DNA of 64,000 nt from Carcharhinus longimanus (lineage: Eukaryota). Under the pieces are notes generated by a model. It worked only from the letters and a program-made list of their open reading frames with translations. It had not been told where the DNA came from and did no database searches. The translations under genes and the position numbers were made by a program. This document shows, in pieces, positions 7,104 through 56,955 of this stretch. Where the stretch lies: contig JASCQW010000128.1 in the NCBI GenBank assembly GCA_030264375.1, forward strand, positions 7,579,875-7,643,874. The letters run 5' to 3'. Positions within the stretch are counted from its first letter, which is position 1. Every line of letters starts with the position of its first letter.

Positions 7104-7312
7104 TCATTACATGATCATGGTTAAAAAGTCTGACAACACCAGGTTTGAGTCCAACCGATTTATTTGATAGTAAACTCATGTCACACTACTGTGACATTGT
7201 GAGAGTTTACTATCAAATAAATCGGTTAGACTTAAACCTGGTGTTGTCAGGTTTTTTACTCTGTTTACCCAGTCCAACACCGGCATATCCACATCATCAT
7301 TACATGATCATG
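7104..7312 (+). mobile_element. Penelope-like terminal-repeat fragment (family A) with 5' inverted copy and 16-bp TSD
   Basis: Direct repeat TCATTACATGATCATG at 7104-7119 and 7297-7312; inverted arms 7122-7185 and 7190-7258; 3' end CCAGTCCAACACCGGCATATCCACATCA. Confidence 0.8.
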
Positions 7313-7614: not shown

Positions 7615-7805
7615 ACTGCCTCTTTATCATTTCCCCTGGTTTCTGTGGCTATGACTCATCTTTCGTTCTCTCACCCTGCAGTATAAATATTTCTCACTTT
7701 CTATACCTTTTTAGCTTTGACAAAGGGTTATCTGGACTTGAAACATCAGCTCTTACAGATGCTGCCAGGCCTGCTGAGATTTTCCAGCATTTTCTCTTTT
7801 TGCTC
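7615..7805 (+). mobile_element. Penelope-like terminal repeat (family B) with degenerate hammerhead
   Basis: AGCT-TTGACAA-AGGGTTATCTGGACTT-GAAA-CA-TC-AGCT at 7713-7751, followed by ACAGATGCTGCCAGGCCTGCTGAGATTTTCCAGCATTTT shared with 16488, 26620 and 56893. Confidence 0.65.
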
Positions 7806-8441: not shown

Positions 8442-8500
8442 GTGATTCCAAATAAACTTATTGGACTTTAACTTGGTATTGTGAGACTGCTTATTGTTTC
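8442..8500 (+). mobile_element. Penelope-like family A fragment
   Basis: CCAAATAAACTTATTGGACTTTAACTTGGTATTGTGAGAC matches 45806-45850. Confidence 0.65.
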
Positions 8501-15001: not shown

Positions 15002-15402
15002 TGGCATGGTGGTACAGTGGTTCGCAGTGCTGCCTCACAGCTCCAGGGAACTGGGTTCAATTCCGGCCTTGGGTGACTCTGTGGAGTTTTCACGTTCTCC
15101 TCGTGTCTGCATGGGTTTCCTCGGGTGATCCAATTTCCTCCCACACTCCAAAGGTGTGCTGGTTAGGTGGATTGGCCATGCTAAATTGCCCTTTAATGTC
15201 CAAAAATATGTACGATGTGGAGATGCTGGTGTTGGAACGAGGTGGGCAGAGTGAGAAGTCTCACTTCAAAGATATGTAAATATATATAATAAATGTGTGG
15301 AGTCATGGGGATAGGGAGGGGGCCTGGATAAGATACTCTGTCAGAGTGTACACAGAGACTCGATGGGTCAAATGGCCTCTTCTGCACTGTAGGGATTCTT
15401 TG
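15002..15402 (+). mobile_element. HE1 V-SINE nested in CR1
   Basis: Full head, V-domain and CR1-type tail. Confidence 0.9.
15213..15266 (-). mobile_element. Penelope-like family A terminal fragment with ~12-bp TSD
   Basis: GATGTGGAGATGCTGGTGTTGGA is the reverse complement of the family A 3' end; flanks CAAAAATATGTA (15201-15212) and CAAAGATATGTA (15267-15278). Confidence 0.7.
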
Positions 15403-16487: not shown

Positions 16488-16592
16488 CTTGGGCTCTATT
16501 CTCTCCTCACAGATATTGTCAGACCTGCTGAGATTTTCCATCATTCTGTTTTTGTTTCAGATTCCAGCATCCACAGTATTTTGCTGTTTTCT
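16488..16592 (+). mobile_element. Penelope-like family B fragment
   Basis: GGCTCTATTCTCTC..ACAGAT..GTCAGACCTGCTGAGATTTTCCA..CAGATTCCAGCATCC. Confidence 0.65.
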
Positions 16593-25640: not shown

Positions 25641-26619
25641 ATAAGTTACTGTTTGCTAGTTGTGTGATGCTAAGAAGGCAGTGAGCAAAGGCTTGACTTT
25701 GAGAGAAAGGGAAACAGACAAGTCATTGCTCGTCCAATGGTTATTCTGAGGCTGGTTTTCACTTAGAGGCTTTTGAATGGGTTCTTTTACTACCCAGCTG
25801 AAGATAGAATATAGCACAAGAATGTCAATATGTGAAAATAGAATAAAACACCCCTAATTGGTCTTCCCTCCAGCACATTTTCTTGGGGATTGCTTTATAA
25901 TGTAGATGTAGAGGGAGATAAATTATACTGTGTCTCTGGAACTGAGCACAGGGATTACAATGTACGATTGACCTGCACCTGTTAACTGTAATACTGACAG
26001 CACACTAACTTTGTGCAGCTATATACAATCGCAGTGTCCAGCCAGTGGGAACTGCACTGTTAATTAGCTGGGCTCCAGAGGGCCCGCATTGAGTGCTTAG
26101 CCAATATTGCTTAAAGCTCGCCTGCCTCACTGAAAGAGGAGGTGCAAAGNNNGCTGGGGCAGGCACTGGGGGGCCTTTGTGAGCTGAATCTGACCCAGGA
26201 AGAACTGACTAATAGCTAAAGATGGGATAGAGCAGACTCCAAGCTTATCAGATGCTGCTCTGGAGGTCTCACTGGAAGGGTTGGAAAGGAGAGGAGATGT
26301 CTGTATCCGAAGGGGCTCCGGAGACCCTCCTGACACACTCAACGGCAGCAGAACCAGAGAATCATGCAGATAATGGCTGGAGTCAGACCTGAGTACCTGG
26401 TTACAGGGCTGCAAGAAATTCAGTGATCTTACAAGAGTGATCAAGATTACTGAATGCATCATCAAATGTTGTATCTACAAATGACACAGTAACTTCCGGC
26501 AATGCTCAAATCACCACAGCCGCAGCACTCCTTGTGAACAACGTCTGAGTCAGGACATTCATATACTCTACCATACTCCCACTCAATGTTGCTACAGACC
26601 CATATCCATATCTTTCTAT

Positions 26620-26745
26620 AATCAAGGCAGATTACCGCGGGTGCTGGAATCGGAAACAAAAGGAGAAAATGCTGGAAAATCTCAACGGGTCTGACTGTAT
26701 CTGTGGAGAGAGAATAGAGCCAACGTTGAGTCTGGATGACCCTGA
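26620..26745 (-). mobile_element. Penelope-like family B fragment with partial hammerhead
   Basis: Reverse complement reads AGGGTCATCCAGACTC-AACGTT-GGCTCTATTCTCTCTCCACAGAT..GAGATTTTCCAGCATTTT. Confidence 0.65.
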
Positions 26746-43587: not shown

Positions 43588-44763
43588 GGCCACAATTCTC
43601 CCATTGTGACCCGCAACTTTTCCGTCGGGTCGCAGTGGGAGATGTGTGTTGCCAGCCTTGAACAGGGATCTGTGCATCGCCGGGAACGCGTGCACATATC
43701 GTAGAACCGGCGAATAATCGCCTGTCAGACAACACTGGGAACTGACGGGAGGGCAGGTAAGTAATTTAAATATTCTTTTAATATATTTTAAATATGTTTA
43801 ATAGTTCATTATCGGGGCCGTTCAGGTCCTGATCAAATCTCCCACCCCGCTAGGAGTATTTCATTCCAGAGGGGTTCAGAGTAGCTCCCCACATTCGGGG
43901 AACTGGTGAAAGATCCCGCTGGAATGAAAGGTGGGGGGTCAATTGCCCCCCCCCCAAGAGGGTCGGGCAGCAGGAGAGGTGGTGCCCCCTGGGCTTGAAC
44001 ACCTTGACAGTGCAGCCTGTGCCCCCGGCACTGCCCAAGGGGCAAATTGCCCATGCCCTGNNNNNNNNNNNNNNNNNNNNNNNNNNNNNNNNNNNNNNNN
44101 NNNNNNNNNNNNNNNNNNNNNNNNNNNNNNNNNNNNNNNNNNNNNNNNNNNNNNNNNNNNNNNNNNNNNNNNNNNNNNNNNNNNNNNNNNNNNNNNNNNN
44201 NNNNNNNNNNNNNNNNNNNNNNNNNNNNNNNNNNNNNNNNNNNNNNNNNNNNNNNNNNNNNNNNNNNNNNNNNNNNNNNNNNNNNNNNNNNNNNNNNNNN
44301 NNNNNNNNNNNNNNNNNNNNNNNNNNNNNNNNNNNNNNNNNNNNNNNNNNNNNNNNNNNNNNNNNNNNNNNNNNNNNNNNNNNNNNNNNNNNNNNNNNCA
44401 GGGCTGGCCCGGGAATTGCTGTGGGGGCAGCGTTCGGGCCGGGGGGCATTGGAGGGCCTGCACTGCAGTGGTCCCAGGCTGGCCAGCAAATGGGGAGACC
44501 GGGACCACTGCTCATGAGCAGAGTTCTCGAACTGTCAGACTCTGGTGCAGATAGCCCTGTGTCCCCGGATTTTTAATGAGATTCGCGACTGGGACCTCTG
44601 CAGTAAGAAGTCTCTCAACACCAGTGCTTACTGTGCTTACCCCAGTACAACGCTGGCATCTCCACATCTCCTCTGCAGTGCAGAGATTCAGGTGAGAAGA
44701 TTAATGGACAGAACAGTCAGGATTTAGAACAGTTTTCCCACCAATTTTTTGGGAGAATTGCCC
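43588..44763. mobile_element. Non-autonomous DNA transposon, probably PIF/Harbinger
   Basis: TIR core CAATTCTCCCA / TGGGAGAATTG; inserted after TTA; interior homologous (reverse) to 13300-13600. Confidence 0.75.
44595..44679 (+). mobile_element. Penelope-like family A fragment with 5' inversion and 10-bp TSD
   Basis: CCTCTGCAGT at 44595-44604 and 44670-44679; inverted AGTAAGAAGTCTCTCAACACCAG then CTTACTGTGCTTACCCCAGT..GGCATCTCCACATC. Confidence 0.75.
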
Positions 44764-45480: not shown

Positions 45481-45552
45481 TTCCCTATTGGGGAATTGAA
45501 CCCTGGTCTTCCACATGACAGGTGGGGATACGGACCACTATACTAACGAGGA
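45481..45552 (-). tRNA. tRNA-Asp(GTC)-derived sequence, probable pseudogene
   Basis: Reverse complement TCCTCGTTAGTATAGTGGTCCGTATCCCCACCTGTCATGTGGAAGACCAGGGTTCAATTCCCCAATAGGGAA is 72 nt and collinear with vertebrate tRNA-Asp; most changes are CpG transitions; no oligo-T terminator downstream. Confidence 0.88.
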
Positions 45553-45768
45553 AGTGCAAATATAGTAAACTTTAGTGTTAAATTTGTCGGAGGGTGAGGT
45601 GTTCCAAGAAGCATTGATGCATGTTTATCAGGTCTGGTGGGGGGGCAATTTTTCACATGTACAGTTTGCTGGGTGAGTCATTCCCTCAGGTGTACACTTG
45701 CTATTGCAATGAAAGGGTGTTGAAATTGGAGGTTTGTTTTGGGATCCCCAATGCATTTTGCAATTTAA

Positions 45769-45805
45769 TTCACCTGATGAAGGGGTAGCGCTCCGCAAGC
45801 TTGTG
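45769..45805 (+). ncRNA. Minimal type I hammerhead ribozyme motif, degenerate (GAAA->GCAA)
   Basis: CAC-CTGATGA-A-GGGG TAGCG CTCC-GCAA-GC-TT-GTG; sister copy at 49484 retains CCGAAAGCTTGTG. Confidence 0.65.
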
Positions 45806-45860
45806 CTACCAAATAAACTGTTGAACTTTAACCTGGTGTTGTGGGACTTCTCGCTGCTCT
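45769..45860 (+). mobile_element. Penelope-like terminal repeat, family A
   Basis: Hammerhead followed by CTACCAAATAAACTGTTGAACTTTAACCTGGTGTTGTGGGACTTCT. Confidence 0.7.
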
Positions 45861-46335
45861 GCAACTTAAATGAAAGGGATGAGCTCATGTGGACATCAAT
45901 AGAAGATGAGGCTCATTCCCATTGGTACCCCATTACCCACAGATATATATCCCAACAGTTCAGCTTCAACATGTCAGAAGAGATTTGACTCCATTCCCAA
46001 GTTATTTTTCATATGTTAACATAGAGCTATACTACCTATGTGAGGGAGAACTGCTGAAAATGTCAATCAAGGCTGAGAAATTTACCATAGCGCTTAGGTT
46101 GTTCTGCTGTTGGAATCTTCCATGCACCCAGAGGAGACATCTGCCAAATCAACTCATCATCATCCAAGTAGCCACATTTGCAGGAAACAGCACCTTTTCC
46201 ATGGAAAGCAGGCTCCAGTCAGACAGCTGGAGGTAACTTTGGATGGCACAAATACAAAGATTTCAGAAAGTAGATGGTAATCAAGTGGGCACGAGGATTC
46301 CTCGCGTAAACTCCATTAGCTACAAACAGTTCTGG

Positions 46336-46645
46336 AATCATAGAATCCTACAGTGCAGCAGGAGAACATTCAGCTATCAAGACAATCCCATCCAGCCTCT
46401 ATCCCTGTAACCCAACATATTTTACCCTGTTAATCTCCCTAACACTAAGGGCGAATTTAACATGGCCATCAACCTAACCTGCACATTTTTGGACTGAGAG
46501 GAAACTACAGCACCCAGAGGAAACCCATGCAGACACAGGGAGAATGTGTAAACTCCACACAGACAGTGACCTGAGATCAGAATTGAACCCGAATCCCTGG
46601 CGCTGTAAGGCAGCGGTGCTAACTAATCTGCCACCATGCCATCCA
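46336..46645 (-). mobile_element. HE1 V-SINE
   Basis: AATCATAGAATCCTACAGTGCAG..GAGGAAACCCATGCAGACAC..GGCAGCGGTGCTAAC. Confidence 0.9.
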
Positions 46646-48039
46646 GGTGTCTTCAAACAATAAGATTGACCATCTGGCATCATATCTGAAACACATATCT
46701 GAGGTGATTGACAAGTCAGAAAATTATGATGATGTGCACAATGTGATGAAGAATGGTGAGCACTTGTGTCACATCATTAATCTCATGGAAAATATAAACT
46801 TCACACTTTTATTGATTTTGCTGAGGAGAATATAAAATTGATGATATCTTCTCAAAAAGAATTAATTACAGAAAGGCTGTATTTTTATTGTGTAATCTTT
46901 ATTGAGATTTTGCTGACAGTTTGCAGTCTTTATACACCCCATGCTTGAACTTAACCTGACAAGTTATTTTCATTGTTTGGCCACATTTTGTATGAATAAT
47001 ATATAAATAAAAGAATTATTCATTAAAATTTTATAAGATTTCCTAAACCAGAGATCTCAGGATAGTATTTACACAAATGTCAACCTTTGTTTAAAAACAT
47101 GTCAGTCAAGTGTTTAAACAGTAGGGATTGTATCAACTGTATAATAAGACAGGGAGAAATAAGAAATAAGACAGGGGGTGTATATAACTAAAAGTACGAC
47201 ATGGGATGCCAGCTAGTTATGCCCTCCGCGTGCAGAACCAGGTGCAGAATTCCACTATTCTTAATCAGTTACAAACTAATGCAACTCATTGGGAAAACTA
47301 TGAGACAGAAGCTCAAGGAATGCAGGCTGGGCACCTGGGATTCTCGAGAACATGCTGACTACAGGTTTGTGTGAGGTCCCAAGATGAAAAGTTGTGGTTG
47401 ACAGAACGGAACATCGTCAAGGTTGAACAGAGCAGGAGAGAAGATTAAATGAATTGAAACTGGTGGTTAGGTTAGAATTAATTCAATCATTAAGATCTAG
47501 GTATTCTATTTCAAACACATAGGGATGCTTTGCTTTAATATTTTGAGGTGAAAAAACAATTTTTTGTGGCATGGAAGGAAAGCATGCAACTGGCAGGAGA
47601 TAGCCTGCTGCCTCTGTGATATCAGGTGAGATCTCTCAGTAGCATTTGGTGTCTTTGCTGTCAAAACGGATCAAAAGAAAATAGAAGAGAACAATAAGGC
47701 TGTAATATAGACAGCTAAGTGAGAATGTCAACAGTAGATAATTTAAAATTAATTCCATCAGTTTTAAAATTTAAGAATTGAAATCAGTTATTGAAAAGTA
47801 GATTTTTTATGAGACTTATTCAAAGAACAAAGGGCAATTATTATGTCATGACTGAGGAAGGAATGAGCACAAGAAAGCAAATGAAGGGAATCAAAATGAA
47901 GTGGCTATTTTGACGTTCATGACAAATTCCCATTAAACCCATTAATTTTCCCCATGAACATATTTTAAACTTGGGGCAGCATGCTGACTGCTTGGATTGG
48001 GGGAGCTCAAAGCTCAGACTGGTTGAAAGGTAAAGGGCA

Positions 48040-48245
48040 AGAGTCTGTGGCCTCCACACGGTATGTTTCTCGGCAGGAGAAGGTGGGGCCCGCTGTTGGC
48101 AGATCTTCTGGTCCTGCTGCTGTCAATGGGATTCCCTATTGAATTCACCGGGAAACCTGCGGCAGGCGGTGAGGGGTGGGGGGGAGGGTGGAGGGTGGAG
48201 TGCCATCGGTAACAGGCGTGAGCAGCGGAAGATGTGGTCCAAAGA
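48040..48245. mobile_element. MITE-like remnant
   Basis: GC-rich island; GTCAATGGG..ATTGA core and GAAACCTGC.G shared with 7810-7960. Confidence 0.4.
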
Positions 48246-48769
48246 GTCTTAAAAAATACAGTGCTAGGTTTCAATGAATGGGAAGACCATTTGGTTGAAG
48301 TATCCTGCTCCATTGGTTATCTTCATAACTCTTACTTCTGGGGCAGTCACTTAGCTGATATAGGACTACACCCGCACTGACAGGAGATACAGATCCCACT
48401 GATGCTTGCAGCAGCAATTGGGATGATCTGCCTCGGGAATGTCTCAAGAGAGTTCAACCAATGTAATTCAGATGGGTAAAAGCCTGCCCCCTTTCCGGCA
48501 CAAGTTAAGAGGGTGCCAATCATGTGTTCAGAAAAACACAGTGAAACATTTTAATGGAAATTAGTTACCCCTGACCTTGATGATATTTCAGTAACATTGA
48601 TATAACTCTTTTCGCAGGGTGAAAACCTTTAGTGGAAATTACATTTTACAGCTCATATTTCATATAAAACCATTTTCTCTGGATTATCATAATTCTTGCA
48701 CCGTCAAGAACCCCACTAATGTTAAACGTGAGGGTATCCCGAAACCCAGTAGGGTGACTTGGAACACTG

Positions 48770-49379
48770 GGGTCGGGGGAGAATTCACCCAGCCCGCCGC
48801 ATTGCTAGAGCAGCACAGTGGGCTGGGAAACTTAAGCGCAGGCCATGTAACAGGCTTCCCATTGGGCTCCATGACTTTGTGCATCTCTGGCCTCCAGAAA
48901 CCAGTGTGTAGCTGAATAAATTATTCAAATACTGATTTAAATCTCATTAGTATGCCCGGACNNNNNNNNNNCCGGACTGAAGTCTCTGGGCCCGCTAGCG
49001 TGTCCCCTCCCCTCCTCCCCCCTGCCAAGAGTGTTTCACTCCAGCAGTGTTTACAACAGCTCCCCAGCAGTGGAAAGGAGCCAGGAAGTGAAGGTGGGGG
49101 GACCATGGAGGCTCCCTGGAGGTCAGGGGTAAGGTGGGGTGCCCTCAGAGCCAGACTGCCCAAGGGAAAATGTTGCAGTGCCAAGGGAGCACCTTGGCAC
49201 TGCCCACCCGGCATTGGTAGTGCCAAGGGGGCAGGGTCAAAAGGGATGGGGCCTCTGTGGGGAGGAGATTGATGGGAGTGCGGGCTCCTGCTGTCAATTT
49301 GTATTTGTGACAGAGGGCGAGAGGCCAGTTATCAGGGTTGGCCATCAGGGTACTGGTGTGGTGGGGAGGGGGGATGTTT
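48770..49379. mobile_element. Non-autonomous DNA transposon fragment (Harbinger-like family)
   Basis: GGACTGAAGTCTCTGGGCCC..GAGTGTTTCACTCCAGCAG..CCATGGAGGC shared with 18915 and 52085. Confidence 0.65.
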
Positions 49380-49479
49380 NNNNNNNNNNNNNNNNNNNNN
49401 NNNNNNNNNNNNNNNNNNNNNNNNNNNNNNNNNNNNNNNNNNNNNNNNNNNNNNNNNNNNNNNNNNNNNNNNNNNNNNN

Positions 49480-49555
49480 TAACCCGAAAGCTTGTGAGTA
49501 TATTATCAAATAAATAGGTTGGACTAAAACCTGGTGTTGTCAGACTTTTTACTGT
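49480..49555 (+). mobile_element. Penelope-like family A fragment with 3' half of the hammerhead
   Basis: CCGAAAGCTTGTGAG..ATCAAATAAATAGGTTGGACTAAAACCTGGTGTTGTCAGACTTTTTAC; 5' half lost in the N gap. Confidence 0.7.
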
Positions 49556-50044
49556 AGCAGTGCTAACCATTGTGCCCCGAAAAAAGCTTGCATTCAATTA
49601 CTATTCACATGGAAGTAGAATGTCCATGGAGTATGTAATACTAAAGCAAGAATTCAGTGTTGGACCATTTAAGCAGTTGATGATTTACAACCCAGCACCA
49701 AAATAATCACAGGCTGCTGCATAATCATGCAATATAGTTAGATTGTAGTCAGATAAAAATGAGGCCCATGAACAGCTACAGCAACAGAAATGGAAGAAAC
49801 AGAGGTGTAGCTGTTGGTGCAAAAGATATTCATTGATAATGATTTACTGCTTCTTCCAGCAGCTCCACTGATATTTCAGTAATCAAAATCTTACGCTGTG
49901 GATAGGTTTTCTGGATTAGCATTTTTAATACGTTACTATGTCTACCAGTAATGCATTTGGGAATTTCTGTTGAATCACTGGGAATATCGAAGCCACAATT
50001 ACTCTGGCCTTTCCATAAATAACTTCCTAAATACTTCCTTGACT

Positions 50045-50300
50045 GTTGCTGAAAAAATAACAGGCTGTCAAAGCTTTTCATCATGCTCTCACTAGGATGG
50101 ATTTGCAAGAATACAAATTGTTAAGGAAACAACAATTTATGTATTGTATGAGAAGAGAGTGCTGAATGGTTGGCATGGTGGACTTTGATTGTTACGAACA
50201 TTACCATGGAGAATGCATCGGGGAATAATGAACTGAATGCATCAGGGAACAGATGACCACCAAATTTGGGTTTAAATTCAAAGTAGGCGGGTTTGCTCTG
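50045..50300 (-). mobile_element. Penelope-like terminal repeat, family C, degenerate hammerhead
   Basis: Reverse complement ATC-CTAGTGA-GAGCATGAT-GAAA-AGCT-TT-GACA; body collinear with 51520-51750. Confidence 0.5.
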
Positions 50301-51519
50301 GTCCTTTTTTACACACATCCATGCCTACTTTTAACAATTCCAAAGGGGACCTCACCTCTCCCAAAGGTCCCTGGGCAATATCGAAAAGAGTAACATGCTC
50401 TCCAAAAGCTACCCTACCTCTCTCAAGAACTCTACTAAATTTAGAAATTCACTTTCCAGGTCACAAGTTGAGTTTTGGACATCCCATTAGTAAAAATCAG
50501 ATCTGGTTGAAGATGCTGTACTTGTGTGGTTGCTTCCATGAACAATGGATGTGCTATTTAGAACCTGTCCCGTTCTCGCCCTGTGGAAGTTGTGGGACTA
50601 GGTTCGGGGCAAGGCTTCCAGATTCATGCCAATGCAACCATTTTTCGCTAAGGCTCTCTATGCAACAATTCAGGCCAAGGGATTAATGTTAGCAAAAAAG
50701 ATTCTGATGAAAATTCACCCATTTCAAGCATAATCATTCCTCTTCATTCAACTGTCCATTGTAACTACAGAAACAGGGTGGGGACCTGGCATGTCTTTTA
50801 CCACGTCCTGATACCCCAAACATGTCGTGCGTGAATTTGGATTTGTCGTATTAAGTGTTTGCCAATTTGCAGGGGAGCTCCAGAGAGACCGGACTCGTAT
50901 ATGATTTCATCAGCATTGTAGTGAGTCTGTGGAAATATTAGGCTGGAATTTATGGGGGTCGATGACTTCAGTATTTGACATGTTTACATTGGCTGCTCAG
51001 TTTCACTCCATGATTTGCTTTAATGCAGATCACTTGGCATTCTGGAGGTCTACCCTGCATCTGGGGCGAGGCAAGAGAAGGGAAATGTGAAGTAGTTCCC
51101 TTTGAGGGTGTTTTAGCATCCCTCCAAACCAGCTTGCCATTTCAATGATTAAAGAAGACCATGTTTGTGGACAGCAACTAGCTGTCATTATCTTTGTGGA
51201 TGTGACTGCAGCTGTCACAGAACTATCTTACGATCCATAGTTATTGTTAAATCCCTCCCTCAGAGCCTGCACTGAACAAAAACAATATTTGTTCCTCCTA
51301 CTCGTGGAGCACTTGGATGCATTAGGCAATAGGAGGTGTACACTTTAAAAGAAGGTACAGTGGTAGATTTCAGACAACCTTCAACTATATGTATCATATG
51401 GTACTTTTGAGAACTCTACTTCACTTTGGCTTAAACATCTTTTGATAGGCAGGGCCATGTTAAAGTCAGGTTGATGGCAAAATGATGCAATTAAGGAAGT
51501 TGTTGTTTAGTCATACACA

Positions 51520-51750
51520 ACTTGAGTTTTGCTGAGAAAAGACACGTGCTGTTGAAGCTTTTCATCTTGCAGTTATCAGGACAAATTACCAATTTTAAAA
51601 GAATACGACTAATCCTGTGTGAGAAGAGAGTGCTGATTGGTTGATGAGTGCAGTCTAAATGGTAGTCCGATTGCCATTGAGGATGCACCAGGGAACAATT
51701 AACTGCCAAGCGTTTGTTTAAATTCAAACACTGCACTGCCCACTGGTAAT
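51520..51750 (-). mobile_element. Penelope-like terminal repeat, family C, degenerate hammerhead
   Basis: Reverse complement TGTC-CTGATAA-CTGCAAGAT-GAAA-AGCT-TC-AACA at 51550-51584; GAGAAGAGAGTGCTGA.TGGTTG shared with 50150. Confidence 0.55.
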
Positions 51751-51843
51751 CTTAATTTTGTTGTCAATGTAATTCTTATCACAATTCTTAGTAGTTTGGC
51801 AAGTGCTGTCCAATCACAGAGTCATACCTAATGATGACACTGT

Positions 51844-51969
51844 GGCTGGAATTTTACCGGCAGGCCTGCCCAAGGCTCGTATGATCGCGCCCAAGGCCAA
51901 TGGAGAATGCCGTTTTGCAAGCCTTGCGCACCCTGAAATTGGGGTAAGCGTGCTGGTAAAATCAGGGCC
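51844..51969. mobile_element. MITE, Harbinger-like
   Basis: Imperfect TIRs GGCTGGAATTTTACC / GGTAAAATCAGGGCC. Confidence 0.55.
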
Positions 51970-52084
51970 ATGTTTTGGGTTTTGCAGGCATGGGCTGATT
52001 CAGCATGATCAGCCTGTTGTGAACAGCTGATAAAACAGTTTGATACAATCCAGCAGTTATTAGGACATACTGCCTGCATAGCTG

Positions 52085-52865: not shown

Positions 52866-55101
52866 TCCAAATAAAAGACTCATTGACACCATCAATTTAA
52901 AAAAGAAAGACAGGACACTTTTCAGGACTGGAAGTGGTGTTCTTATGTCATTCATGAGTTTTTGCAAAATGCAGCAAACAATGATCTAATCAGGATAGCC
53001 ATTATCCTGCAGGATGGCTTTGATGTGCTCTATTCGGCATCAAGCTTGAATGGTGAGCAAGTGGCTCATACCCTACTTATGAGGTTGCCAATAAGGCAGT
53101 TTTGCAGCACGTTGAACTGTAGGAATCCCAATGCATATATTGACCAATGAAGGTAGTCTTGCAATAGACAATAGCAGAGAACACATTGGCAGATTTCTCA
53201 ACTAGCACATTGAGGAAAGGGAGCTCATTTGACTGCTCCATTGCAAAGGTGAATTTAAGTGCAGGATAGAACCCTTTAAGATGTGTAAAGAAATTCTTAC
53301 ATGCAGCTGCAGATTAAAATATAGCAAACACATCATCTACCTATTGGAAATCTGCAAGGATTATCTGGTGCTGTCAGACTTCTTAATGGCTCACGGCAAT
53401 TTACAGCTCCTCCCCACTGTGATTGAGGAATACAATTCTGCCCATAGAACTTTATTTGTTTTATTTCATCTCCACAAGGGTCCCGAGGTCTGCCCATGGT
53501 GGATACTAAGTGAGTTTTTATGGTAGGTGTAAGAACCTGGATTGGCATGAGTTAGCACAACTTGGCATAACGGCTTAAAGGGCCACGGGGATTAGCATAG
53601 AGCATGTGGAGTATGCGGGGGGGGCGCTGAGGGATAGAGGATTTTTTGTGTTTTATTCATTTTTCAAAATTTGGACACATTGTTGGAGCCCTAAGGCAGG
53701 CCGTCCACCCAACTCACCTCTCCACCTGGTATCCCCCTCACTATTTCTGAGGTTCTCTCCCCAACTTTTAATATAACCCGACGCCTCCATGGACTGAAAA
53801 TATGTCCTCCAGGCAGCCATTTCTAAAAAAAAACAAATTGGCAGAGCCAAGAATTACCCAACTCTGTACACCTTGCCTGCAGATAAAAATCCAGGCCAGT
53901 GAATTCAGCGATAGACACTTAAATTTATTTACTTCAACGTGGGTCCTGTGAGCTGCCCATGATGGATACCGGGTGAATTGGCGTAGGTAAGGTAAGGGCA
54001 AAGGGTGTGGGTGGGTGAGCATTAGTTGGCAATGCTGGGAGCAAAAATTCAGACTCATGTCTACAGCAATTGAATATAATGCTTAGTATAACTGGGTGCT
54101 CAATGATATGACGTTGAATGGAACAAAAAGAAGAGTGTTTTTGATGTCTTAAGGCCAATTTAAACTCATGTTTGTACTGTTGTGCTGTTTTCCCCCTCCC
54201 CGTCCCCAATTCTGGCATTGGTCTATATCTAATCTCTGGCTAATGGCAGAAATGAGCTGGAAATTTGAGAGCTATTTGCACATTGCCACTCAGGCAGAAT
54301 TAGAATTAGGTTTAACCTTTTGGGTATAACTTGCATCATTAGAGAAAATTCAACACTCATTGTCCTTTGAAGAGATACTTAATGTCAACATTTCGCCCAT
54401 TTTCGTCTTTTTGCTACTTTGACCTTTGGAGTTAATCACAAACCACCCTGAGTCGAATATTGCTTTCTTTGAGCCTTCTCTACTTAAACTTAGTTAATTT
54501 ATTCTAATGGATGCCAGACTAAAGAAGAGAGAGTTTTACTTTTATGTGGAATTAACAATAGCTGATCAGGGCCTGAGGAGGGGCTGGTGAGATCAAGTAT
54601 CTCACTGTTCATATAGCATCTGTTTCATCAAATCAGCACCTAAATATTCACCATCAAATGTGAGGTTCTCATTCAATTCCATTCACTTCACAAATAGATC
54701 AGATAACATTCCTGTCTATAAAAAGTGAATATATTCAATCACTACTGCAATTTTGCAGTCAGAATGTTCAATTAGAGAGAATGATAGACATTAGACAATG
54801 GCTGAATCTATCATTAAGGTCTCAATAATTGATAAAGCATGAAATGATCTTACTGGGTTGATAGCAGCCATGTATTTCAAAGACAGGGCTCCTGTAATAC
54901 TGCACTATAGTAATAATAACCTTTGTGATATCCTTGTGAAAAATAAAATAGCTAAAGCATCAATCAGAGTAATGATCATAGTCTGTTAGATTTTTCAAAA
55001 TGAACAACAATCCTGGAATATACCAGAAAAGGCAACATTTTAAAATACTTATAATTTTGTTTATTTGTCAATAATGGAAAAGGCACTATTTTCATAACGT
55101 T

Positions 55102-56714: not shown

Positions 56715-56955
56715 GTTTAAAGATGTGTGGGTTAGGTGCATTGGCCATGCTAAGTTGCCCCTTAGTGTCCCGGGATGCACAAATTGGAGGGATTAGTGGG
56801 GTAAATAGTTGACATTAAGGGGTAGGGCCTAGGTGGGATTGTTGTCAGTGCAGACTCAATGGGCTGAATGGCCTCCTTCTGCACTGTAGGAATTCTGTTT
56901 CTCTCCACAGAGGCTGCCAGACCTGCTGCATTTATCCAGCCTGTTCTGTTTTTTA
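56715..56955 (+). mobile_element. HE1 3' half fused to a Penelope-like family B fragment
   Basis: HE1 tail GCACTGTAGGAATTCT runs directly into TCTGTTTCTCTCCACAGAGGCTGCCAGACCTGCTG. Confidence 0.75.

Follow-up and report, generated by a model that had tools for sequence, protein, structure and literature searches.

Hammerhead-bearing Penelope-like elements in Carcharhinus longimanus: the ends of their short copies and the target sites of one family

A stretch of 64,000 nucleotides (nt) from the 2.68-Gb genome of Carcharhinus longimanus, in the following called the window, contains six short sequences resembling minimal hammerhead ribozymes. In an earlier note on this DNA they were assigned to the terminal repeats of three families (here A, B and C) of Penelope-like elements (PLEs), and these families were regarded as ribozyme-processed. 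This raises the questions whether the motifs are hammerheads at all, which elements carry them, and whether cleavage by the ribozyme shaped the short copies. According to our analysis it is quite probable that the short copies are dead-end reverse transcripts of RNA not cut by the ribozyme, the motifs being decayed hammerheads of three PLE families. The 3' ends of the copies fall at either of two points separated by 35-40 nt, an inverted 5' partner is frequent, and resolved family A insertions are mostly flanked by duplications of 12-13 bp. Positions of copy ends are given relative to C3 of the hammerhead core.

Hammerhead motifs and the elements that carry them

All six sequences were found at the coordinates given in the earlier note. 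Taken alone, the window is weak evidence for hammerheads. A descriptor of the minimal hammerhead yielded no perfect match. Allowing a single core mismatch gave one match, compared to 0 in all 8 shuffles, and allowing two gave 2 matches, compared to 0-3 in the shuffles. An Rfam scan of the window gave 9 matches at E<=10, no hammerhead family among them. Chance look-alikes would fit the observation that only one of the six motifs passes the descriptor with one core mismatch and that Rfam finds none, but this explanation has practically no weight left at the level of the genome. Motifs with an intact core occur there by the hundreds (A 512 exact, B 90 with at most one mismatch, C 85 exact), compared to 0 for reversed-pattern controls. 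Furthermore, the majority cores are perfect in copies picked without regard to the motif, and the motifs have a fixed location behind the open reading frames (ORFs) of PLEs. The short tail motif has 14,737 matches genome-wide for family A, 2,488 for B and 222 for C. From bystander density, the copy number is roughly 100,000-150,000 each for A and B, with inverted partners counted twice.

The link to ORFs was examined in 30 loci per family, which were searched with DNA upstream of the motif and without selection for the ribozyme. The hammerhead region follows the query in 20 loci of A (one of them in a gap of Ns), 22 of B and 23 of C, the query locus counted, mostly 280-700 nt from the query start. 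Translations of the upstream loci contain remnants of reverse transcriptase (RT) and of the GIY-YIG endonuclease, and full-length proteins with both domains match 30/30 loci of A, 21/30 of B and 26/30 of C. The RT of family A shows 76-79% identity to proteins of three shark species, among 72 matches that contain mostly RVT_1 and in some cases GIY-YIG. This supports the three separate PLE families proposed in the earlier note. In each of them the pseudo-long terminal repeat (pLTR) contains a minimal type I hammerhead, and the RT and GIY-YIG ORFs that the note had suggested looking for lie upstream of it in all three. On sequence grounds, all six motifs are minimal type I hammerheads that have decayed, located at the pLTR ends of these families.

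A CX4CxxC linker precedes GIY-YIG in families A (CHSNLCKTC) and B (CNRRRCKTC). The closest full-length relatives of family C, P0185 and P0202, match 26 and 23 of the 30 C loci and lack a CX2-5CxxC linker. They contain RT and a C terminus that looks GIY-YIG-like by eye, Pfam calling RVT_1 alone. By the linker criterion in the accessible text of PMC8557442, A and B would be of the Neptune/Nematis type and C of the Penelope/Poseidon type. For A and B the distribution of 3' ends is bimodal, with about 35-40 nt between the two groups, corresponding to the PLE tail, and it is less clear in C; inverted 5'-truncated partners are common among the copies. One of 20 long copies, the family C locus L491, shows the order inverted pLTR, pLTR, ORF, pLTR. 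This direct arrangement of pLTRs around the ORF was seen in no long copy of A or B.

In long ORF-anchored copies the majority cores are perfect (A n=17, B n=19, C n=22). Family A has stem I CAC/GTG, a 5-bp stem II and the palindrome AGCU, family B stem I AGCT/GGCT, a 5-bp stem II and ACGU, and family C stem I CTGTC/GACAG, a 2-bp stem II and AAGCUU. The features of minimal hammerheads (CUGANGA and GAAA boxes, NUH cleavage site, stems I and II, palindromic stem III) are present in these majority sequences and not individually in the six window copies. The stem I AGCT/AGCT given for family B in the earlier note applies to the copy at 7713 only and not to the family. Likewise, the palindromic AAGCTT described for stem III is a true 6-mer in family C, whereas in family A only the 4-mer AGCU can pair; there AAGCTT is incidental, since the cleavage nucleotide varies between U, C and A (U 23, C 23, A 20, G 3 of 73 copies). 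Much of the ribozyme decay is located at CpG sites. Double changes at two stem II pairs of family A amounted to 8/73 (shuffle mean 2.5, p 0.004) and 5/73 (2.0, p 0.02), with copies treated as unrelated. From the perfect majority cores, these compensatory changes and the non-G cleavage nucleotide in A, it is probable that the parent elements had a working ribozyme.

Some results speak against this picture. Within-family covariation was found neither in B (50 copies) nor in C (25 copies). Folding energies of five window motifs and three intact natural motifs were unremarkable (z -0.8 to +1.1 for the intact three); folds without unusual stability are expected of motifs that need a dimer. The clade labels are based on a single motif. 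No intact ORF is present in any of the 20 long copies after extension to 8 kb, the longest open stretch being 258 amino acids (aa), and all copies inspected are interrupted by stops or frameshifts. No named PLE reference protein was among the matches of the protein searches. Searching the genome for the GIY-YIG family yielded 8 matches, none resembling A, B or C at the DNA level, and Pfam on 8 natural ORF fragments returned a weak RVT_1 in one, a chance-level match in another and nothing else. Word-index protein searches with B and C fragments found no match, while a HMMER search detected relatives for C. A structure search gave no relative; in the Atlas, a family C fragment was assigned to RT/HTH_animal clusters at 0.94, which is a lead only.

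The copies in the window that carry hammerhead motifs, and the coding remnants next to one of them, are as follows.

45768-45859, plus strand: family A pLTR stub of 92 bp, Neptune/Nematis-type PLE, hammerhead at 45771-45805
49480-49555, plus strand: family A stub, GAAA-GC-TT-GTG retained, 5' half of the hammerhead missing in an assembly gap
7672-7802, plus strand: family B pLTR piece, Neptune/Nematis-type, TATA box and decayed hammerhead at 7713-7751
26619-26743, minus strand: family B stub with long tail, beginning within the ribozyme at +7, GA of GAAA deleted
50038-50235, minus strand: family C pLTR piece, decayed hammerhead at 50063-50100
51503-51729, minus strand: family C pLTR, Penelope/Poseidon-type, decayed hammerhead at 51550-51584
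51728-52070, minus strand: remnant of the family C 3' untranslated region and endonuclease end, 70-80% identity to other C loci, broken up by other DNA
52908-53363, minus strand: family C RT remnant with the VDD motif region and stop codons, upstream of the 51550 hammerhead on the same strand

The earlier note described core mutations in the fully sequenced window copies, and indeed all five fully readable copies are damaged, the sixth (49484) being interrupted by an assembly gap. The copy at 45771-45805 reads CAC CTGATGA A GGGGT AGC GCTCC GCAA GC TT GTG, with A13 changed to C. At 49484 just the GAAA half remains and the other half lies within the N gap 49380-49479. The copy at 7713-7751 has two changes in its core (TTGACAA) with GAAA CA TC present, the minus-strand copy at 26715-26745 lacks the 5' core in addition to the GA of GAAA, and in both C copies (minus strand) the CUGAUGA box is altered. 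The description of the window copies as non-coding only does not apply to the copy at 51550, which is linked to the endonuclease-end and RT remnants; the latter shows 46% identity to P0185 (E 1e-20) and 70-83% to other C loci.

Elsewhere in the assembly, five small contigs (L081, L082, L083, L084 and L088) contain PLE ORFs that have no relation to A, B or C at the DNA level and whose open frames are long (199-903 aa). L081 and L082 have hammerhead-like motifs of their own downstream of the ORFs, and in L088 GIY-YIG precedes RT, a Naiad-like order. These ORFs could belong to young elements or to contamination.

Probable start of the copied RNA

The 5' ends were determined in copies detected through their tail or as bystanders of other searches (160 of A, 176 of B and 25 of C), leaving out copies ending at gaps and copies anchored by ribozyme or ORF. 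Counted per position at risk, 46/505 (A) and 41/355 (B) ends fall between -8 and -3, compared to 37/4669 and 60/5232 between +4 and +40. This corresponds to an about ten-fold excess where stem I begins, just 5' of the ribozyme. At the cut site there is no excess (A 6/667, B 6/761). The same holds without inverted-partner copies, with 15/239 (A) and 26/252 (B) at -8 to -3, 8/1841 and 27/3227 at +4 to +40, and the cut site likewise not enriched (0/255 and 4/460). In a leave-one-out check of the estimator, long copies did not stop at the peak (A 17/17, B 19/19). The term ribozyme-processed used in the earlier note is not borne out by this distribution, and the copied RNA was likely not cut by the ribozyme.

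According to the opposite explanation, the short copies would be retrozyme-like, non-autonomous elements, in which cleavage, and circularisation, defines a small RNA that is then copied by PLE enzymes. The apparent selection on the ribozyme in family A fits this, as does one family B stub of the window (16492-16588, plus strand), whose 5' end lies at the predicted cleavage site (+31) and which is a single case in a sample without enrichment there. Moreover, retrozymes have been reported in one chondrichthyan in the accessible part of a preprint (bioRxiv 10.64898/2026.07.22.740005). Nevertheless, we regard this explanation as improbable given the missing excess at the cut site and the 5' ends grading continuously into ORF-bearing copies. 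As for tandem arrays, the two apparent tandem B copies inspected (L299 and L307) are near-identical overlaps on either side of an assembly gap. Such gap artefacts could inflate retrozyme counts in this assembly.

Public data gave a comparable position. In four public contig runs the commonest listed 5' loose end on a B copy lies exactly at -4, the first base of stem I (514, 610, 461 and 26 contigs), other 5' places among the best six entries of each run reaching at most 233. On an A copy, 10 of 15 listed joints are inversions at -8 to -4. Short pieces starting at the cut site may be under-represented in such contigs.

TATA-like boxes are located at -35 in A and at -34 in B, and both peaks lie 29-30 nt from the box. 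RNA polymerase II starts about 30 nt past a TATA box. A pile-up of ends could also be caused by stalling or template switching of the RT at the folded ribozyme, or by splicing to an acceptor located where stem I begins, instead of an RNA start. The peak coincides with the edge of the structured RNA, the signal for a cap-derived G is weak, and in B the peak has a pyrimidine tract followed by AG; an intron ending at helix I is noted for the Penelope element of D. virilis in the accessible text of PMC4209133. Stalling, however, should occur on that side of the helices which the RT meets first, the 3' side, and the rates inside the ribozyme are flat. There is no AG at the family A peak, and in the few stubs with a duplication the duplication ends 0-3 nt from the stub start, so that an upstream exon would not fit in between. 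Together with the common distance of both peaks from the TATA-like box, this renders stalling or splicing rather unlikely.

For the preferred origin from uncut RNA, the following course can be proposed. RNA polymerase II would start about 30 nt behind the TATA box of the pLTR, at the 5' edge of stem I. The protein of the element would then prime reverse transcription at internal sites of the tail. Where such priming takes place near the 5' end of the RNA, synthesis would run off after about 90-140 nt and leave a stub consisting of ribozyme and tail. The ribozyme itself would most likely cut slowly, as a dimer or with the help of protein, and at a step other than the definition of the template's 5' end. 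For the window stub at 45768-45859, the start corresponds to the 5'-end peak (-6) and the end to the short-tail end, and it is flanked by a 9-bp duplication with one mismatch (45759-45767 and 45860-45868).

Several observations reduce the confidence in this course of events. Family C shows no 5' pile-up (2/137, 25 copies). In the public runs, which consist of assembled contigs, no start of transcription was seen, and the base preceding the B start is mostly C. An additional G at the start, as expected from a cap, occurs in 11/31 copies of B and 3/12 of A and is only suggestive. A cap-templated G (11/20 of the non-C bases in B, p 0.007; 3/5 in A) is not claimed here, as inverted partners contributed to the initial signal. 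The pyrimidine tract with AG at the B pile-up resembles a splice acceptor, and a clear duplication was found in few short non-inverted stubs (A 4/20, B 3/49).

Promoters of PLEs have been described differently in the portions of the papers available, as TATA plus initiator in pLTRs (PMC3846280) and as a TATA-less internal promoter in the Penelope element of D. virilis (PMC2377424). In the majority pLTR of family C (22 copies), two CCAAT boxes (-94, -72) are followed by TATAAA at -46 from the ribozyme core, which together look like a textbook polymerase II promoter.

The closest biochemical counterpart is the Poseidon element PAc of Anolis carolinensis (Frangieh et al. 2024, PMC11167929; accessible text). 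There the uncut RNA was the main substrate, insertion needed no cleavage, priming was internal at two tail sites, both DNA strands were cut and a dimer was predicted. Two internal RT start sites that give rise to the tail, cutting and extension of both strands, the predicted dimer, a hammerhead not needed for insertion and the lack of RNA ends at the cut site would be shared with the families described here. PAc differs in preferring AT-rich ATT sites and in an ORF that starts inside the ribozyme, whereas family A prefers a CTG...CAG palindrome around a stagger of 12-13 bp. In vitro data for Neptune-type proteins were not found in the literature examined, as far as its text was accessible.

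Target sites of family A

Empty sites were rebuilt for 46 fold-back insertions of family A, of which 39 remained at a stricter cut-off and 31 after removing B targets and duplications outside 10-15 bp. In 23 of the 31 sites the duplication has 12 or 13 bp. CTG located about 11 bp left of the centre, read on either strand, was present in 25/62 half-sites, compared to 17/372 background windows. In held-out family A ends, CAG at +13 to +18 was likewise enriched (38/101 versus 76/505, p 7e-7; 17/65 versus 39/325, p 0.004). Family A insertion sites are thus enriched for the palindrome CTG-N2-[12-13 bp duplication]-N2-CAG. One fold-back insertion of the window matches this motif.

44601-44668, no strand assigned: minimal fold-back insertion of family A, 10-bp duplication, left flank with CTG and right flank with CAG

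A symmetric site around a fixed stagger likely indicates a protein dimer nicking both strands, and in family A such a dimer would nick the two strands symmetrically at the palindrome. Two aspects limit this conclusion: the CTG window was picked after seeing the same sites, with only 40% of half-sites carrying CTG, and the motif is missing at family B sites (1/22 half-sites from 11 sites). No target motif could be established for family B from these 11 sites. By eye, several of them have CAA directly to the left of the duplication or TTG directly to its right, which may point to a palindromic preference of another kind.

Family A also lands repeatedly in the pLTR of family B, at a site just after the ribozyme of B. 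Genome-wide, 26 of 27 A-to-B junctions lie at one nucleotide, with 0 at a control position 30 nt further. This hot spot is located just past the predicted cut site of B and has a duplication of about 12-14 bp (27 places, including L449-L473). Among 25 inspected junctions, 15 show the left junction with the duplicated target (inserts of 102-663 bp), and in 14 of these 15 the long tail of the inverted A arm is joined at the B site. Both the lengths of A and the truncations of the host differ among the 25 junctions, which indicates independent insertions and rules out a single amplified A-in-B composite. Nesting was observed only for A into B, at 11 loci among 331 A ends, compared to 0 among 318 B and 91 C ends.

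The B site reads TTG-GC-13 bp-CA-CAG and fits the family A motif, so that the hot spot is probably explained by the pLTR of B containing a suitable palindrome. Alternatively it might be that family A specifically recognizes the pLTR of B, or that one composite has spread. The concentration of 26/27 junctions at one nucleotide and the exclusive nesting of A into B would be in line with this, and in the accessible text of PMC6765202 PLEs are said to insert into or beside existing PLE copies. We consider this alternative to have a small chance only, because the differing insert lengths and host truncations exclude one amplified composite and because the motif was derived from non-B sites and the B site fits it all the same. 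Furthermore, with 0.89 motif sites per kb and about 150,000 B copies (a rough value counting inverted partners twice), B would provide a few percent of all sites, close to the 3/91 tail-anchored A copies located in B. The junctions of the A and B copies predict an RNA that starts at the 5' edge of stem I, an uncut inserted template and a family A endonuclease preferring CTG-N16/17-CAG with a stagger of 12-13 bp.

Going further, a symmetric dimer might read CTG...CAG half-sites two bases outside the 12-13 bp stagger and copy capped, uncut RNA starting at stem I, with the ribozyme acting at a step that does not produce the template's 5' end; the stubs would then preserve, as a fossil map, the target code as well as the RNA start. 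For this extended version we see the chances as evenly balanced. If true, the symmetric target code would fit the dimer predicted for a PLE protein and would distinguish PLE integration from the single-nick mechanism of long interspersed elements (LINEs). Neither the palindromic preference nor the fixed A-in-B site was found in the literature on PLE target motifs and fixed-site nesting that was searched, accessible text of PMC12910113 included; most subscription journals, Repbase and Dfam lay outside the search.

Relation to known elements and further features of the window

Minimal hammerheads in pLTRs of PLEs are of a known kind, and families A, B and C are new members instead of a new system. 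Apparently new is the preference of family A for a mirror-symmetric target, hinting at an enzyme that cuts as a pair. The role of the ribozyme in PLEs and their target choice and cutting are named as open questions in the accessible parts of PMC8557442 and PMC11167929.

Cervera and De la Pena (2014, PMC4209133) described minimal hammerheads in pLTRs of metazoan PLEs, among them fish elements of Xena, Poseidon and Neptune. The type I topology, the short helix I, the palindromic 15.2-16.2 in place of helix III and the occurrence mostly as solo copies of truncated PLEs are the same in the shark families; the additional nucleotide before stem II is found here in A and B. Family C differs by a 2-bp stem II without the extra nucleotide and by a 6-nt palindrome, and sharks are not named in the text available. 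Precursors processed by cleavage are proposed there, whereas the insertion ends in our study do not record such precursors. A shark-specific paper on PLE hammerheads was not found in the literature searched, with most subscription journals, Repbase and Dfam lying outside it.

With the Neptune/Nematis and Penelope/Poseidon clades (Craig et al. 2021, PMC8557442; accessible text) the families share a C-terminal GIY-YIG, the inverted 5'-truncated partner and a tail of 30-40 bp, as well as the CX2-5CxxC linker in A and B and its absence from the relatives of C. The insertion bias associated with the linker concerns microsatellites there, and a spaced palindrome is not mentioned in that text. The preprint cited above also reports Neptune and Poseidon PLEs across five vertebrate classes. 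Its non-LTR retrozymes resemble the short copies in being derived from PLEs, in their type I hammerhead, in their presence in one chondrichthyan and in monomers dispersed over chromosomes. They are defined, in the part accessible, by tandem units each with an intact ribozyme, whereas no true tandem array was seen in our sample; the unit boundaries here do not appear to be set by ribozyme cleavage, as there was no 5'-end excess at the cut site. Dimer cleavage is reviewed in the accessible text of PMC6765202.

The remaining pieces of families A and B in the window are listed below.

7122-7297, no strand assigned: family A fold-back insertion with inverted short arm and long-tail arm, no ribozyme core, 16-bp duplication
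8442-8497, plus strand: family A tail piece adjoining an assembly gap
15211-15264, minus strand: family A tail-only stub
56894-56953, plus strand: family B tail-only stub

The fold-back at 7122-7297 matches Rfam mir-39 (E 1e-5) and mir-542. These matches are due to the family A fold-back and not to microRNAs, so that such sequence can lead to spurious microRNA calls.

About 220 bp from the family A stub at 45768, a tRNA-like sequence is located at 45481-45552 on the minus strand (Rfam RF00005, 32 bits), which is probably a tRNA-derived repeat or pseudogene. Finally, more than 20 copies of an abundant, tRNA-headed repeat resembling short interspersed elements (families D1-D20) are spread across the window, perhaps similar to the shark HE1 type.

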